From the NCBI RefSeq assembly GCF_988242995.1, contig NZ_OZ547043.1: a stretch of DNA of 64,000 bases; one strand, written 5' to 3'. Below the pieces are notes generated by a model. That model had not been told where the DNA came from and did no database searches. It was given only the letters and a program-made list of their open reading frames with translations. Below are positions 1-12,659 of this stretch, piece after piece. A program made the translations under genes and the position numbers. Positions within the stretch are counted from its first letter, which is position 1. Each line of letters starts with the position of its first letter.

Positions 1-3000
1 TCCTGCCTGCGCCAGCTCGCCATATTGCGTACATAACGCCTGCAATTCTGGACGGTTTGCCGCCCATTCCCGCAGTGCATTTAGCGGCTGAGTCAATGCG
101 GCTTTCAACTGCGCATCGACCGGATACTCTGCATCCTGACGCGCGAGCGTCACTGCCAGTGCACTTTCCGGGCGATTCGCCAGCAGACGGTAGAGATAGA
201 GCGGACCGCCTGCTTTCGGCCCGGTGCCGGACAACCCTTCGCCGCCGAATGGCTGCACCCCGACCACTGCGCCCACCATATTACGGTTAACGTACAGGTT
301 ACCGACATGGGCCGAGCCAGTGACCTGGGCGATGGTTTCATCAATGCGCGTATGGACGCCAAGCGTCAGACCATAACCGGAAGCGTTAATTTGCTCGATC
401 AGCTCCGGCAGCTGGTTACGGTTATAACGCACCACATGCAGCACCGGACCAAAGACCTCTTTTTGCAATTCGGCAAAGTCATCCAGTTCAATCAGCGTCG
501 GGGCGACAAAGGTGCCGCTTTGCCATTCACGGGCATCTTCACTGTTTTCCCGCACTGCCTGGAACACCGGACGGCCTTTACTACGCATAGTCTGAATATG
601 ACGCTCAATATTGGCTTTCGCTTCGCTATCAATCACCGGACCGATATCGGTGGTCAGGCGACCAGGATTACCCATCCGGCATTCGGCCATTGCGCCGCGC
701 AGCATTTTCAACGTGTGGTCGGCAATCTCATCTTGCAGGCACAGCACGCGCAGTGCCGAACAACGCTGGCCCGCACTGTCGAACGCCGAGGCCAGCACAT
801 CTATTACTACTTGTTCGGTCAGGGCGGAGGAGTCGACAATCATCGCGTTCATACCGCCGGTTTCCGCGATGAGCGGAATAGGGCGACCCTGAGCGTCGAG
901 GCGGCTGGCGATATTGCGTTGCAGTAACGTAGCGACTTCGGTTGAACCGGTAAACATCACCCCGCGCACGCGATCATCACCCGTCAGTTGCGCGCCCACG
1001 GTTTCCCCCCGACCTGGCAGCAATTGCACCACGCCTGGCGGTACACCCGCCTCCACCAAAATGGCAATCCCTTGCGCGGCAATCAGCGGCGTTTGTTCTG
1101 CCGGTTTTGCCAGTACGCTGTTACCTGCCGCCAGTGCGGCAGCGATCTGCCCGGTGAAAATCGCCAGCGGGAAGTTCCACGGACTGATACATACCACAGG
1201 CCCTAATGGACGGTGGGTTTCGTTAGCGAAATCATCCCGCACCTGTCCGGCGTAGTAGTGGAGAAAATCGACCGCTTCGCGCACTTCGGCAATGGCGTTA
1301 CTGAAGGTTTTTCCGGCCTCACGCACCAGAATACCAATCAGTTGCTGCATCTGGCTTTCCATCAGCACGGCAGCGCGATGCAAAATTGCCGCGCGTTCAG
1401 CCGGAGGCGTGGCAAACCAGATTGGTGCGTTATTAACCGCACTTTCCAGCGCCTGTTCTACTTCACTCGGCGTGGCTTCGCGCACATAGCCCACAATATC
1501 TTTCGGCTCTGCCGGGTTAATAACGGGCGACATCTCACCAGCCGCGACCGATTGTTCCAGCATTGGCAAGGCCTGCCATTTTTGCAGTGCACTATTGAGC
1601 AGGGCAGAAGAGAGCGATGCCAGACGGTGTTCGTTAGCGAGATCCAGCCCTGCCGAGTTGTCGCGCCCGTGACCGTAAAGATCGCGCGGCAGGGGAATTT
1701 TCGGATGCGGTAATCCAGTTTGCCCTTCCTGTTGCGCCAGTTTTTCTACAGCAGTGACCGGATCGGCGACCAGTTCATCCAGGGGCAAAGAGGTGTCAGC
1801 AATACGGTTAACAAACGAGGTGTTAGCACCGTTTTCCAGCAGGCGACGCACCAGATACGCCAGCAGCGTTTCATGGGTACCGACAGGAGCATAAATACGA
1901 CACGGACGGTTAAGTTTGCCGTCGGCAACTTTCCCGGTGACCTGCTCATACAGTGGCTCGCCCATACCGTGCAGGCACTGGAACTCGTACTGACCCGGGT
2001 AGTAGTTCTGACCCGCCAGTTGATAAATTGCCGCCAGCGTATGGGCGTTATGCGTTGCGAACTGCGGGTAGATTAGATTCGGCACCGCCAGCAGCTTTTT
2101 CGCACAGGCGAGATATGAAACGTCGGTATACACCTTGCGGGTATAAACCGGATAACCTTCAAGGCCGTCCATCTGCGCGCGCTTGATTTCACTATCCCAG
2201 TACGCGCCTTTCACCAGGCGAATCATCAGACGGCGACGGCTGCGGGTGGCGAGATCAATCAGGTAATCAATCACCAGTGGGCAGCGTTTTTGATAAGCCT
2301 GAATAACAAAACCGATGCCGTTCCAGCCTGCCAGTTCCGGCTCGAAACAGAGTTTTTCCAGCAGATCGAGGGAGATCTCCAGACGATCGGCCTCTTCGGC
2401 ATCGATGTTAATACCAATATCGTACTGACGCGCCAGCAGGGTGAGTGATTTCAGACGTGGGTAAAGCTCTTCCATTACCCGGTCATACTGGGCGCGGCTG
2501 TAACGCGGATGCAGCGCCGACAGCTTGATTGAAATGCCCGGACCTTCATAGATGCCACGACCATTGGACGCTTTACCAATGGCGTGAATCGCCTGCTGAT
2601 AGGAAACCATATACGCCTGTGCATCTGCGGCGGTCAGCGCGGCTTCGCCCAGCATATCGTAGGAGTAACGGAAACCTTTCTCTTCCAGCTTGCGGGCATT
2701 GGCTAACGCTTCCGCGATGGTTTCGCCAGTGACGAACTGCTCGCCCATCAGGCGCATCGCCATATCCACACCTTTGCGGATCAGCGGTTCACCGCTCTTA
2801 CCGATAATGCGGTTCAGCGAGCGGGAGAGGCTGGCTTCGTTATGGGTGGAAACCAGTTTGCCGGTAAACAGCAGCCCCCAGGTGGCGGCATTAACAAACA
2901 GGGACGGGCTACGACCAATGTGTGACTGCCAGTTACCGTTGCTGATTTTGTCGCGAATTAACGCATCACGGGTGGCTTTGTCGGGAATACGCAACAACGC

Positions 3001-3510
3001 TTCTGCCAGACACATCAGCGCCACGCCTTCCTGCGATGACAGCGAAAACTCCTGCAATAACCCCTGGACCATACCTGCGCGACCACTGGCATTTTTTTGA
3101 TTACGCAGTTTATCGGCCAGTTGATATGCCAGTTTATGCGCCTGTTCAGCAACTGGCTGCGGCAGGCGGGCTTGTTCCAGCAGCATAGAAACCGCTTCGG
3201 TTTCCGGGCGGCGATAGGCAGCGGTGATAGCTGCGCGGGAAACCGACTGGGGCAAAATTTGCTCGGCAAAGTCGAGGAATGGCTGGTGTGGTTCCTCTGC
3301 CGGAGTGGGTGCTTCATCGCTCTCATTGGCAGCGCCAGAAAGCAGCGCAGGTAGCTCCGGAAGAGTATCGCTGTTTTCCAGTTGTTCAAGATAAGAAAAA
3401 ATCGCCTGCTTAATTAACCAGTGTGGCGTGCGATCGATACGTGTCGCGGCAGACTTAATACGCTCACGCGTCGCGTCGTCCAGCTTAACCCCCATGGTGG
3501 TGGTTCCCAT
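1..3510 (-). CDS. putA: PutA, bifunctional proline dehydrogenase / P5C dehydrogenase and put repressor; 3' end truncated by window edge
   Basis: Minus-strand frame runs from window edge to ATG at 3508-3510; N-terminus MGTTTMGVKLDD and window-edge residues match recalled PutA; not in ORF track because no stop inside window. Confidence 0.93.
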   Translation of the reverse strand, partial: MGTTTMGVKLDDATRERIKSAATRIDRTPHWLIKQAIFSYLEQLENSDTLPELPALLSGAANESDEAPTPAEEPHQPFLDFAEQILPQSVSRAAITAAYRRPETEAVSMLLEQARLPQPVAEQAHKLAYQLADKLRNQKNASGRAGMVQGLLQEFSLSSQEGVALMCLAEALLRIPDKATRDALIRDKISNGNWQSHIGRSPSLFVNAATWGLLFTGKLVSTHNEASLSRSLNRIIGKSGEPLIRKGVDMAMRLMGEQFVTGETIAEALANARKLEEKGFRYSYDMLGEAALTAADAQAYMVSYQQAIHAIGKASNGRGIYEGPGISIKLSALHPRYSRAQYDRVMEELYPRLKSLTLLARQYDIGINIDAEEADRLEISLDLLEKLCFEPELAGWNGIGFVIQAYQKRCPLVIDYLIDLATRSRRRLMIRLVKGAYWDSEIKRAQMDGLEGYPVYTRKVYTDVSYLACAKKLLAVPNLIYPQFATHNAHTLAAIYQLAGQNYYPGQYEFQCLHGMGEPLYEQVTGKVADGKLNRPCRIYAPVGTHETLLAYLVRRLLENGANTSFVNRIADTSLPLDELVADPVTAVEKLAQQEGQTGLPHPKIPLPRDLYGHGRDNSAGLDLANEHRLASLSSALLNSALQKWQALPMLEQSVAAGEMSPVINPAEPKDIVGYVREATPSEVEQALESAVNNAPIWFATPPAERAAILHRAAVLMESQMQQLIGILVREAGKTFSNAIAEVREAVDFLHYYAGQVRDDFANETHRPLGPVVCISPWNFPLAIFTGQIAAALAAGNSVLAKPAEQTPLIAAQGIAILVEAGVPPGVVQLLPGRGETVGAQLTGDDRVRGVMFTGSTEVATLLQRNIASRLDAQGRPIPLIAETGGMNAMIVDSSALTEQVVIDVLASAFDSAGQRCSALRVLCLQDEIADHTLKMLRGAMAECRMGNPGRLTTDIGPVIDSEAKANIERHIQTMRSKGRPVFQAVRENSEDAREWQSGTFVAPTLIELDDFAELQKEVFGPVLHVVRYNRNQLPELIEQINASGYGLTLGVHTRIDETIAQVTGSAHVGNLYVNRNMVGAVVGVQPFGGEGLSGTGPKAGGPLYLYRLLANRPESALAVTLARQDAEYPVDAQLKAALTQPLNALREWAANRPELQALCTQYGELAQAG

Positions 3511-10902: not shown

Positions 10903-11589
10903 ATGAGCTTTATGGTTTTTGTAACTTGTTTGACAATTGCATTTGTCGCCGGTTTTGCTGTTGCCAGAAAATTGACACTCCGAAAAGTTGCCTCATCGGT
11001 AATCATCACTAGATCGCAACCAGTCCCTTCCTCTGCAACTTCCCCTGCGGCTAAGGCGTCGACAAGGAGCTATACACCGCAGAAAACCTATCGTGACTCT
11101 CGTTGGCAAGAACGAGATGAGTTGTTCCAGGGAATGGTTGCCGAAGGTATTTTATTGGAAGGAAAAGAGTGGTTAATTACGCGTTGTGAAAAAATTTATT
11201 TTGATAATCTGGAGAAATGGTTTGGACATTATTGTCATATCCATTGCCAGGTCTCTCTGGGGCGCTTGATCAACTTTCCAGAACAACCCGAGTTTAGCGA
11301 AGAAGAAAGAAAGCGTTTCTTTGCAATTTATAATGGAATGGCAATGGATTATGTTCTGGTTTCAAAGAAGAACAATAAAATAGTCTGTGTTATTGAGCTG
11401 GATGATCCGAGTCATGAAAGGGCAGATCGCATTATTCGTGACCGTTGGTTGAATACGATTATGACTATTGCACGGGTGCCTTTTGTACGAGCTTCTGTCA
11501 CTAAATTGGATGAAATCCCTCCGGTCTGGGATACCCGTGACAAAATTCGCCCATTAGCCGCGGCGACAAAGGGTGAACCGTTGCATTAA
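10903..11589 (+). CDS. Hypothetical membrane-anchored protein with C-terminal PD-(D/E)xK-like nuclease-type domain (resembles DUF2726 / NERD-like fold); orphan accessory gene
   Basis: 228 aa ORF; AGGTGA RBS about 10 nt before ATG; N-terminal hydrophobic helix (aa 4-24), S/T/P-rich linker, C-terminal block MDYVLV..VIELDDPSHERADRIIRDRWL..VPFVR; visibly AT-rich; not recognised as a K-12 gene. Confidence 0.65.
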   Translation: MSFMVFVTCLTIAFVAGFAVARKLTLRKVASSVIITRSQPVPSSATSPAAKASTRSYTPQKTYRDSRWQERDELFQGMVAEGILLEGKEWLITRCEKIYFDNLEKWFGHYCHIHCQVSLGRLINFPEQPEFSEEERKRFFAIYNGMAMDYVLVSKKNNKIVCVIELDDPSHERADRIIRDRWLNTIMTIARVPFVRASVTKLDEIPPVWDTRDKIRPLAAATKGEPLH

Positions 11590-11596
11590 CTAAGTA

Positions 11597-11674
11597 CCCC
11601 GGTCGGGGCTCCTCATCCCCCCGGTGTGTGCAATATACGAAAAAAAAGCCCGTACTTTCGTACGAGCTCTTCTT
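11597..11674. repeat. Copy 1 of a 78-bp module that equals the serX downstream terminator region
   Basis: Near-identical (3 differences) to 12489-12565, which sits directly 3' of intact serX; contains CCCCGGTCGGGG and CGTAC..GTACG hairpins and an A8/T8 run. Confidence 0.7.
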
Positions 11675-12385
11675 GTGCACAGAAAACCCCCAGCTAGGCT
11701 GGGGGTTCCGGAAAGCTTTCAGCTTTGAGCCAGTTATTAAAACCCCTTTTGATTTGTTAAAACACCTTGCGGTCTGGCAACTGCAAGTGTCAAACAAGAA
11801 ATCAAAAGGGGGTCCCAATGGGGGACGAAAAGAGCTTAGCGCACACCCGCTGGAACTGTAAATATCACATAGTTTTTGCGCCGAAATACCGAAGACTGGC
11901 GTTTTACGGAGAGAAGCGTAGGGCGATAGGCAGTATTTTGAGAAAGCTGTGTGAGTGGAAAAGCGTACGGATTCTGGAAGCAGAGTGCTGCGCAGATCAT
12001 ATCCATATGCTTGTGGAAATCCCACCCAAAATGAGCGTATCCGGCTTTATGGGATATCTGAAAGGGAAAAGCAGTCTGATGCTTTACGAGCAGTTTGGGG
12101 ATTTGAAATTCAAATACAGAAACAGGGAGTTCTGGTGCCGAGGGTACTATGTCGATACGGTGGGTAAGAACACGGCGAAGATACAGGACTACATAAAGCA
12201 CCAGCTTGAAGAGGATAAAATGGGAGAGCAGTTATCGATTCCCTATCCGGGCAGCCCGTTTACGGGCCGTAAGTAACGAAGTTGGATGCAAATGTCAGAT
12301 CGTGTGCGCCTGTTAGGGCGCGGCTGGTAACAGAGCCTTACAGGCGCATTTGAAAAACCTCCGGCTATGCCGGAGGATATTTATT
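11675..12385 (+). mobile_element. IS200-like insertion sequence (IS200/IS605 family), about 0.71 kb
   Basis: Single 152-aa HuH transposase; subterminal hairpins CCCCCAGC-TAG-GCTGGGGG (11687-11705) and CCTCCGGC-TAT-GCCGGAGG (12358-12376); no terminal inverted repeats; size as expected for IS200; exact ends approximate. Confidence 0.8.
11818..12276 (+). CDS. tnpA: IS200 transposase TnpA (Y1 HuH)
   Basis: 152 aa MGDEKSLAHTRWNCKYHIVFAPKYRR..HIHML..RGYYVDTVG; HuH motif and catalytic Tyr region; ORF track extends upstream to an in-frame start at 11767. Confidence 0.9.
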   Translation: MGDEKSLAHTRWNCKYHIVFAPKYRRLAFYGEKRRAIGSILRKLCEWKSVRILEAECCADHIHMLVEIPPKMSVSGFMGYLKGKSSLMLYEQFGDLKFKYRNREFWCRGYYVDTVGKNTAKIQDYIKHQLEEDKMGEQLSIPYPGSPFTGRK

Positions 12386-12391
12386 TAAATA

Positions 12392-12488
12392 TGGCGGTGA
12401 GGGGGGGATTGACTCGCTTCGCTCGCCCTGCGGGCAGCCCGCTCACTGCGTTCACGGTCTGTCCAACTGGCTGTCGCCAGTTGTCGAA
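12392..12488 (-). repeat. Degenerate copy of serX 3' end (19-bp exact direct repeat 12392-12410) plus 78 bp of unrelated sequence; att-like scar
   Basis: TGGCGGTGAGGGGGGGATT is identical to the 3' end of intact serX at 12572-12590; upstream part does not fold into a tRNA. Confidence 0.6.
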
Positions 12489-12565
12489 CCCCGGTCGGGG
12501 CTTCTCATCCCCCGGTGTGTGCAATATACGAAAAAAAAGCCCGTACCTTCGTACGAGCTCTTCTT
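12489..12565 (-). terminator. serX downstream hairpin/terminator region (copy 2 of the 78-bp module)
   Basis: On the serX sense strand the tRNA is followed by GCTCGTACGAAGGTACGGGC hairpin and T8. Confidence 0.65.
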
Positions 12566-12571
12566 TAAAGA

Positions 12572-12659
12572 TGGCGGTGAGGGGGGGATTCGAACCCCCG
12601 ATACGTTGCCGTATACACACTTTCCAGGCGTGCTCCTTCAGCCACTCGGACACCTCACC
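12572..12659 (-). tRNA. serX: tRNA-Ser (serX type)
   Basis: 88 nt, sense strand GGTGAGGTGTCCGAGTGGCTGAAGGAGCACGCCTGGAAAGTGTGTATACGGCAACGTATCGGGGGTTCGAATCCCCCCCTCACCGCCA; long variable arm typical of tRNA-Ser, encoded CCA. Confidence 0.9.

Follow-up and report, generated by a model that had tools for sequence, protein, structure and literature searches.

The locus downstream of the tRNA gene serX in this Escherichia coli DNA raises the question of how a transposase-encoding block came to lie precisely between a second copy of the serX terminator and what looks like the 3' remnant of a tRNA, and whether its position directly behind a terminator hairpin is a coincidence. An earlier interpretation made from the letters alone (the sequence-only reading) had proposed an IS200-like element inserted at this junction. 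Here, the element, its flanks and its relatives were compared with sequence, family and structure collections, and the features so located within the window, i.e. the whole 64-kb stretch of DNA that was analysed, are collected in Table 1.

Table 1. Features of the IS200 copy and of the flanks on either side of it (positions are those of the window)
Feature	Position	Strand	Basis or remark
Distal serX/RtT terminator copy, the insertion target; A-run (A8), hairpin 11647-11668, tail CTTCTT	11640..11674	+	Terminator scan
IS200-group insertion sequence, complete	11675..12385	+	711 bp; ends from empty sites and other copies
A-rich stretch AGAAAA, candidate left guide sequence	11681..11686	+	Position 5' of the left hairpin
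Left-end hairpin, perfect stem of 10 bp and loop of 3 nt	11685-11694/11698-11707	+	Inverted-repeat search, fold
art200-like antisense sRNA region, putative	11737..11826	-	Fold, published description and near-identity to Salmonella
SD-sequestering 5' UTR stem-loop	11743..11811	+	16-nt inverted repeat, 94% complementary
tnpA, 152-aa Y1 HUH transposase	11818 (ATG)..12276 (stop)	+	Pfam, NCBIfam, structure alignment
Right-end imperfect palindrome, 13-nt arms, 92% complementary	12305..12348	+	Inverted-repeat search, fold
A-rich stretch TGAAAAA, candidate right guide sequence	12351-12357	+	Position 5' of the right hairpin
Right-end perfect hairpin, 8 bp, with 9-nt tail ATATTTATT	12358-12365/12369-12376; tail to 12385	+	Inverted-repeat search, fold
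One RtT repeat unit	12386..12529	-	Rfam RtT; PGAP at homologous sites
Proximal serX terminator, hairpin 12538-12559, T8 on the minus strand	12530..12571	-	With the uninterrupted junction CTTCTT/TAAAGATGG
serX, tRNA-Ser(GGA)	12572..12659	-	ARAGORN; Rfam tRNA 53.8 bits

Identity of the element and its relatives

The length of the element bears out the earlier estimate of about 0.71 kb, and the single HuH transposase proposed for it is likewise present, as tnpA, whose ATG is nucleotide (nt) 144 of the IS, constitutes the only substantial open reading frame of the block and the only one to match a protein family; tnpB is absent. The encoded protein matched the Pfam family Y1_Tnp (PF01797) with 126.5 bits (E = 7.9e-37) and the NCBIfam equivalog transpos_IS200 (NF033573) with 144 bits against a cut-off of 55, while the solved TnpA structures 2ec2, 2f4f, 2a6m and 2xm3 align with its core at E values of 2e-23 to 5e-16. 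Matching to these structures located the motifs DHIH, which contains the HUH motif H61-I-H63, and YIxxQ, with the catalytic Tyr125 and with Gln129. The exact TnpA sequence is on record in 996 contigs, in a count that extended to 1000. A search of the 64-kb window with the hairpins of both ends returned this one IS200 copy, with no second copy and no fragments.

The ends of the element were determined from two kinds of comparison. In the window the left flank ends in ...GAGCTCTTCTT and the right flank resumes with TAAATATGGCGGTGAGG, and two genomes that encode an identical DUF2726 protein upstream (L134 and L135) carry the uninterrupted junction GAGCTCTTCTTTAAATATGGCGG (GAGCTCTTCTT|TAAATATGGCGG) at this position. 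These empty sites therefore fix both ends of the IS and demonstrate that nothing was duplicated upon insertion, no target-site duplication being found in this comparison; they agree, in coordinates and ends, with the exact insertion point that had been proposed. Furthermore, ten other copies encoding an identical TnpA at unrelated chromosomal sites share homology from GTGCACAG to ...GGATATTTATT (the right end was also given as ...GGAGGATATTTATT) and nothing beyond. Three draft genomes (L139-L141) have the same left junction as the window and their contigs break inside the IS, and a further strain (L136) possesses two RtT units and no IS. The insertion interrupts no gene.

Perfect subterminal hairpins were indeed identified at both ends, of 10 bp on the left and 8 bp on the right. 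The former lies 10 nt from the left end (IS nt 11-33) and the latter 9 nt from the right end, where it is terminator-like on both strands, with TTTTTC following it on the minus strand. Folding z-scores of the hairpins ranged from -2.9 to -5.6, and only 0-1 of 200 shuffled sequences folded equally well. The right-end stem is preserved by a compensatory T:A to A:T change in copies from Vibrio, Sutterella and Clostridiaceae, the right-end tails of which finish in TTATT or TTTTT, and the imperfect palindrome preceding it is kept in copies from Yersinia, Edwardsiella, Vibrio and Sutterella. An inverted repeat joining the two termini was sought across the element and none was found, as the sequence-only reading had stated. 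The left hairpin of Salmonella IS200 (nts 12-34) acts as a bidirectional terminator that blocks read-in transcription (PMC4513863); the left hairpin of the present copy is probably also the one bound by TnpA at that end, while the right hairpin with its tail probably represents the TnpA-bound right hairpin and cleavage site.

The combination of a Y1 HUH tnpA gene, subterminal hairpins, and the lack of both terminal inverted repeats and a target duplication places the element in the IS200 group of the IS200/IS605 family. E. coli TUM1886 and Ch1 contain copies that are 100% identical throughout the 711 bp and that carry the annotation IS200/IS605 family tnpA, and these, together with the identity to Salmonella IS200 given below and the hallmarks already described, support the original assignment to IS200. 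We consider it very probable, judging from its sequence, that the element is an intact and probably transposition-competent IS200 copy (IS200 group, IS200/IS605 family) of an E. coli subtype. It is an already known, textbook insertion sequence that is already annotated, a routine copy that any annotation pipeline names. Experimentally, IS200 is notoriously inactive under laboratory conditions (PMC4513863, PMC12594629).

Among its relatives, the elements that PGAP names 'IS200/IS605-like element IS200C family transposase' are 96-97% identical to the window copy, with the same ends and the same length of 711 bp; the window copy differs from IS200C-named copies at 23-27 of 711 positions, and the two subtypes in general differ at 23-30, a divergence of approximately 3-4% that is spread along the element. 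The prototype, IS200 of Salmonella enterica (707-711 bp), resembles the window copy in size, in encoding one TnpA of 152 aa and in the layout of its left end, and it is 90.7% identical over nt 8-577 (L143, L144 and L146); as the Salmonella contigs break off within the IS, this comparison does not extend to the last 134 nt. Roughly 9% of positions are substituted between the two, and the first seven nucleotides are GTCTATG in Salmonella and GTGCACA in the window copy. At the protein level, TnpA is 95-96% identical to the Salmonella-labelled proteins P0023 and P0066. ISfinder regards elements as isoforms at identities of at least roughly 90% for DNA or at least 95% for protein, and by this isoform criterion, taken over the DNA of nt 8-577 and the protein, the sequence of the window element classifies it as IS200 proper. 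IS1541 of Yersinia pestis is more distant, at 86.9% identity over its full length, and shares the hairpins and the right end (CCTCCGGCTATGCCGGAGGATATTTATT) of the window copy; it differs in its left terminus (GTGCCCAG), in a much higher copy number in its host and in the occurrence of tandem dimers.

IS608 of Helicobacter pylori and ISDra2 of Deinococcus radiodurans are related to the window element through the Y1 HUH fold of TnpA (E = 3e-19 to 2a6m and 5e-16 to 2xm3). They likewise possess subterminal hairpins, lack inverted repeats and a target duplication, display a lagging-strand bias and insert 3' of a sequence of 4-5 nt. Unlike IS200, however, they carry tnpB and their palindromes are imperfect, and their targets, TTAC and TTGAT, have no reported need for an adjoining hairpin. 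For IS200, the cleavage chemistry, the guide sequences and the role of a target hairpin discussed below are putative.

Within E. coli, matches to the element were present in 3093 of 5426 complete genomes, in 2063 of which a place spans 80% or more of it, and the number of places per genome ranged from 1 to 35. To our knowledge, based on the established IS inventory of strain K-12, that strain carries no IS200.

The left-end regulatory module

The sequence-only reading had suggested that a structured 5' UTR and an antisense RNA might limit transposase expression, as in Salmonella. The Rfam family STnc490 (RF01405) matched IS nt 11-134, including the left hairpin, with 146.4 bits against a gathering score of 56. 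The matching strand is the sense strand of tnpA whereas the published STnc490/art200 RNA is antisense (PMC4513863, PMC2515195), and the match was therefore used as evidence of left-end homology and not of the strand of an RNA. The predicted 5' UTR stem-loop corresponds to IS nt 69-137 (RNA fold of 11715-11840, z = -4.5) and would sequester the Shine-Dalgarno (SD) sequence AAGGGGGT at 11806-11813; the equivalent stem-loop of Salmonella IS200 spans nts 69-138, with AAGGGGGU as the SD sequence (PMC4513863). On the minus strand, the art200-like region is predicted to form a long hairpin followed by UUUUAAUAA (z = -4.7) and is nearly identical to its Salmonella counterpart. Taking into account the STnc490 score of 146 bits, the two favourable folds and the low number of differences from Salmonella in the first 200 nt (seven, in 193 nt compared), the suggestion is supported at the sequence level: the IS200 left-end regulatory module, comprising the terminator hairpin, the SD-sequestering stem-loop and art200, is predicted to be present.

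If the module operates as it does in Salmonella, TnpA production would be throttled at several levels, as the left hairpin would block transcription reading in from outside, the stem-loop would hide the ribosome-binding site and the art200-like antisense RNA would exert further repression. The host terminator located just upstream may provide additional insulation, and both IS ends may insulate the element too.

The presence of this module invites another interpretation, namely that of a domesticated relic which no longer moves and which matters through its small RNAs, i.e. a 5' tnpA fragment and art200. Such an interpretation draws on Salmonella, where IS200 is essentially immobile and genes for invasion and flagella are under the control of its 5' tnpA RNA (PMC5435999, PMC12594629), and on the observation that the RNA-coding left end is the part of the element best conserved with respect to Salmonella. 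We nevertheless regard it as improbable, given that the insertion is polymorphic among strains with an identical neighbouring protein, that E. coli genomes contain up to 35 places matching the element, that fully identical copies occur in unrelated strains and that tnpA is intact with all catalytic residues. The two interpretations, relic with small RNAs and mobile transposon, are not mutually exclusive.

The serX flank and its RtT unit

Read along the minus strand, which is that of serX, the order of elements is serX, its terminator, an RtT-like sequence of 138 nt, six bases, the IS and the second copy of the terminator. This second, distal copy presents on the plus strand a hairpin and a T-rich tail ending in TTCTT immediately 5' of the IS, and it duplicates positions 12509-12565 with 98% identity. 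The sequence-only reading had described the flanks as a terminator copy and a tRNA 3' remnant, the junction between them being found intact next to serX. An intact copy does exist at 12553-12582, although it differs by one base (TAAAGATGG) from the junction that the IS splits, so that the statement holds except for the implied identity of the two.

As regards the supposed tRNA remnant, the Rfam family RtT (RF00391) was matched at 12392-12529 (138 nt) over the full length of the model, with an E value of 7e-06 and a score of 41.1 bits, which is below the gathering score of 45. The minus strand of this unit finishes in a pseudo tRNA 3' end, ...CCTCACCGCCA, at 12392, six nucleotides before the IS. 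In 2022H048, in GMF065 and in the K-12-like strain DSM 498, PGAP labels the corresponding position 'RtT sRNA', and the tandem unit of approximately 181 bp that follows serX is present in zero to three copies per strain (none in KE40, two in L136 and three in DSM 498). The RtT of the tyrT operon (RF00391) likewise starts after a terminator, ends in a pseudo tRNA 3' end and occurs in tandem; the unit described here differs in lying downstream of serX. The RtT match, the PGAP annotation and the variation between zero and three units indicate that the flank is an ordinary RtT repeat structure. The features recognised by the sequence-only reading are all there, yet their interpretation has to be refined: the terminator copy and the tRNA 3' remnant together very probably make up one RtT tandem-repeat unit and do not represent an integration scar. 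In practical terms, this repeat structure explains the odd 'tRNA remnant' beside serX.

A partial tRNA beside a duplicated terminator could also be taken for the att scars of an integrase-encoding island at serX, with the transposase gene as island cargo. Duplications of tRNA 3' ends are typical of island integration, and serX is used as an island site in some strains, such as CFT073 with its toxin-antitoxin island. However, the duplicated unit is the RtT repeat, matched by the Rfam model just under its gathering score and present in zero to three copies after serX in strains without any island; without the IS, the two repeat copies would be separated by merely about 180 bp, and the ends of the IS were set independently by ten unrelated insertion sites. 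Between the repeat copies neither an integrase nor island cargo was detected, just the 711-bp IS and one RtT unit. The island reading, which is ruled out by the RtT match and the empty-site comparison, retains a vanishingly small probability in our estimation.

Terminator hairpins as insertion sites

Having established that the IS entered an RtT array directly behind a terminator hairpin, it remains to be considered how other copies are placed. All ten of the other E. coli copies start directly after the GC hairpin and T-run of a co-oriented upstream gene. A collection scan with the 17-nt core of the left hairpin retrieved at least 120 stretches, against approximately 35 chance matches that we calculate would be expected for the whole collection, and removal of flanks that were duplicates or not of the IS200 type left 99 distinct left junctions among the matches listed. 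These junctions derive from E. coli, Yersinia, Brenneria, Edwardsiella, Dickeya, Budvicia and Pluralibacter, and further from Vibrio, Oxalobacter, Sutterella, Mailhella/Desulfovibrio (Desulfovibrionaceae), Bacillota and Elusimicrobia. A simple terminator-like test was passed by 89 of the 99 distinct left junctions among the matches listed, most of the ten failing ones being visibly imperfect hairpins. The last pentamer of the left flank conforms to TTNTT in 82 of 99 cases (TTTTT in 58, TTCTT in 11, TTGTT in nine and TTATT in four), and the others are close variants; the window flank, with TTCTT, passes the terminator-like test. As a background estimate, the same test was applied to the window without the IS, where 0.31% of positions passed it, as did 8.7% of TTNTT sites and, among intergenic TTNTT sites, 15%. 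The arrangement is one-sided, since a terminator pointing inwards was found in none of 33 distinct right flanks.

The same rule is followed by three Salmonella sites (hairpin plus T5-6) and by IS1541, for which all 15 distinct left junctions lie behind a hairpin with a T-rich tail. Moreover, tandem IS-IS junctions were encountered in Y. pestis (L119, L120 and L122) and Mailhella (L109) in which one copy starts directly after the hairpin and ATATTTATT of the right end of another. We conclude that insertion right after a terminator-type hairpin is the normal situation for an IS200 target and not a coincidence of this locus. A practical consequence is that IS200 junctions lend themselves to prediction as well as recognition: a terminator hairpin and its T-rich tail are followed at once by an element beginning G(T/G)N5GAAAAC.

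The literature that was searched for IS200 target choice treats terminator targeting just as a statistical enrichment, and the classical papers on IS200 and IS1541 may describe it. A preprint reports that terminator-like sequences are enriched upstream of IS200/IS605 elements and interprets this in terms of persistence (10.1101/2025.07.22.666184), while indirect hints are provided by the location of IS1541 between pheL and pheA and by the sRNAs STnc290 and STnc440, which end just upstream of IS200 copies (PMC2515195).

Two explanations for the association have to be weighed. On the one hand, the IS200 group may select not a pentanucleotide alone but a structure, on the lagging-strand template, made up of a hairpin like that of an intrinsic terminator and a T-rich tail; we put this forward tentatively, as a possibility that is on balance unlikely. 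The structure so selected may mimic the element's own right end, which is itself a hairpin with ATATTTATT, and may be read by A-rich guides. On the other hand, the hairpin in the left flank may be due to purifying selection only, insertion taking place at any T-rich pentamer and surviving behind terminators, an explanation to which we also assign a rather low probability. Insertions behind a co-oriented terminator disturb nothing, the interpretation of persistence has been adopted in the preprint mentioned above, and the distance from the hairpin foot to the insertion point, which varies from approximately 5 to 10 nt, favours selection as well. Against an effect of selection only, a hairpin accompanies just 15% of intergenic TTNTT sites in the window as opposed to 90% of the junctions, the pattern is strictly one-sided, and IS copies insert directly behind the right-end hairpin and T-rich tail of another copy. 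The pattern holds, furthermore, in Y. pestis, a species in which genes are readily disrupted by other IS families. Survival of harmless insertions may account for part of the association with terminators.

A fixed spacing of 9 nt between hairpin and cleavage site, as at the right end of the element, was considered for the targets and found no support in view of this variation, owing to which recognition of a rigid 'pseudo right end' is not established.

With regard to the strand that is used, GC skew is positive throughout the window and tnpA is on the plus strand; the IS flanks are G-rich on the IS top strand at 58 of 71 loci, including all ten E. coli loci. According to the family rule, the active strand resides on the lagging-strand template (PMC5027513). 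A position of the top strand on the lagging-strand template fits this rule, with the qualification that the IS invariably points in the same direction as the gene upstream of it, so that skew and gene orientation are confounded.

Based on the family membership of the element, a transposition pathway can be outlined in which a dimeric Y1 HUH TnpA would bind the subterminal hairpins of the top strand, and this strand would be excised as a circle and reinserted into a single-stranded target, 3' of a short T-rich motif and with no target duplication. This 'peel and paste' step is established for IS608 and ISDra2 and is extended to the present copy by family membership. In this instance, insertion would have occurred into the plus strand as the lagging-strand template, right after the hairpin and CTTCTT in the RtT array downstream of serX. 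The guide tetranucleotide GL of IS608 is located 5' of the hairpin foot (PMC5934647); almost every IS200-type left end has a conserved GAAAAC immediately 5' of its hairpin, and by analogy we infer that the A-rich stretches beside both hairpins are guides that pair with TTNTT. The target architecture of hairpin plus TTNTT tail mirrors the right end of the element itself, AGAAAA and TGAAAAA are the candidate pairing partners of TTNTT, and the target hairpin may either expose the T-tail in single-stranded DNA or be bound in the manner of the right-end hairpin.

The targeting of terminators is the sole aspect of this locus with some potential for novelty, the element itself being of low interest. 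If structure is indeed selected, every new copy would land in a ready-made, transcriptionally insulated and harmless site, and terminators such as that of serX/RtT would constitute recurrent hot spots; if this is also true mechanistically, a targeting rule combining structure and sequence would apply to the smallest autonomous transposon, and the quietness of IS200 and the ease with which it is tolerated would be accounted for.

The serX site itself was occupied repeatedly among the genomes compared. IS200 is found at the same position, CTCTTCTT|TAAA(T/G)ATGG, in four configurations that involve two IS subtypes: (i) a DUF2726 gene on the left, the RtT unit present and an IS of the window type (this window); (ii) a diverged DUF2726 allele on the left, RtT present and an IS of the IS200C type (2022H048 and 2022H047); (iii) dgcT on the left, RtT present and an IS of the window type (GMF065 and L010); and (iv) dgcT on the left, RtT absent and an IS of the IS200C type (DA33137). 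The draft genomes L139-L141 share the left junction of the first configuration, and as their contigs end in the IS, subtype and RtT unit lie beyond what they cover. Among the 5,426 complete E. coli genomes, the best full-length match to the locus is 2022H048, at 96%. The occurrence of two subtypes at one serX site implies at least two hits, or conversion of resident copies. Separately, at the fdnI-side terminator, insertions one base apart were observed in two genomes (L004 and L008).

IS200 at the serX terminator and at other terminators

The same position in the serX terminator was found to hold two IS200 subtypes, which differ at 23–30 sites per 711 nt, and we therefore conclude that it reflects either recurrent insertion into a single hot spot or gene conversion between IS copies. 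The occupied terminators (see table) occur both in genomes with a dgcT context and in those with a DUF2726 context. K-12-like strains carry pga-dgcT-IS3-ycdU where the window has the DUF2726 gene; the DUF2726 allele of strain 2022H048 is only ~95% identical in DNA, while serX there is 100% identical.

The RtT array downstream of serX comprises between zero and three units of ~181 bp each among the E. coli strains compared. These units differ by a T/G polymorphism (TAAATATGG or TAAAGATGG) that is shuffled from unit to unit, as expected from unequal recombination.

Two genomes (L004 and L008) carry IS200 in the terminator downstream of a formate-dehydrogenase cytochrome b gene, their junctions lying one T apart within the T8 run of this common terminator. 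In CFT073 (L150), an island with a toxin-antitoxin system adjoins serX and contains an IS200C copy; as this copy resides inside the island, behind a different hairpin and a TTTTCATT tail, it is not the insertion seen in the window.

Coordinates of the features compared (each locus in its own numbering)
Feature	Sequence	Position	Strand	Remark
DUF2726 protein gene	window	10903-11589	+	228 aa; between phoH and serX
RtT array	window	12386-12571
RtT array	L003	1831-2329
RtT array	L136	3770-4140
RtT array	L002	3690-3784
IS200 at serX terminator	L148 (DA33137), L149 (GMF065), L001 (2022H048), L010, window
IS200 downstream of cytochrome b gene	L004 and L008	2350-2360 in each
Island adjoining serX	L150 (CFT073)	1-3322
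Plasmid right-end fragments	matches H58, H59, H99-H105	query nt 571-711 = window 12245-12385
Tandem copies	L119 (Y. pestis)	~349
Tandem copies	L109 (Mailhella)	~144
Solo left-end hairpin	L093 (Dickeya undicola)	~2120-2175	-
RF01405 match	window	11685-11808	+	tnpA sense strand

Tandem copies, fragments and solo hairpins

Head-to-tail tandems of IS200/IS1541 were observed in Yersinia pestis NCTC5923 (L119, L120 and L122) and in a Mailhella massiliensis MAG, and in both species the right end of the first copy is directly followed by the start of the second. The Mailhella tandem has the right-end tail GGGGCCCCTTT and GAGGAA rather than GAAAAA 5' of the right hairpin, changes which may represent co-variation of guide and cleavage site.

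In many E. coli plasmids of ~92–95 kb, O157-type ones among them, IS200 is represented solely by its final ~141 nt (~91% identity), beneath which there is either no annotation or an unnamed 'transposase'; this piece is a conserved right-end fragment. Other plasmids retain only the first ~337 nt.

In Dickeya undicola, a solo left-end hairpin lies directly behind a terminator T-run. It has the 13 initial nucleotides of the IS on one side and their reverse complement on the other (GTCTATAGAAAAC-hairpin-GTTTTCTATAGAC), an arrangement that could have arisen as a miniature derivative or as the footprint of an excision. The 17-nt hairpin core was also located at the apparent right end of a different element in MAGs of Ruminococcus and other Bacillota/Elusimicrobia (L099-L107, L033, L034, L075 and L094), with a 9-nt tail behind it (ATGCTTATT or ATGTTTATT), beyond which the flanks are unrelated; the left-hairpin sequence of IS200 thus seems to be reused elsewhere as a right-end hairpin.

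Strand of the STnc490 model

The Rfam model RF01405 (STnc490), which describes two hairpins of the tnpA sense strand, matched the window on that strand. STnc490 (art200), the RNA that gave the model its name, has been described as antisense (PMC4513863, PMC2515195), and the strand of the model is therefore no guide to that of the sRNA.
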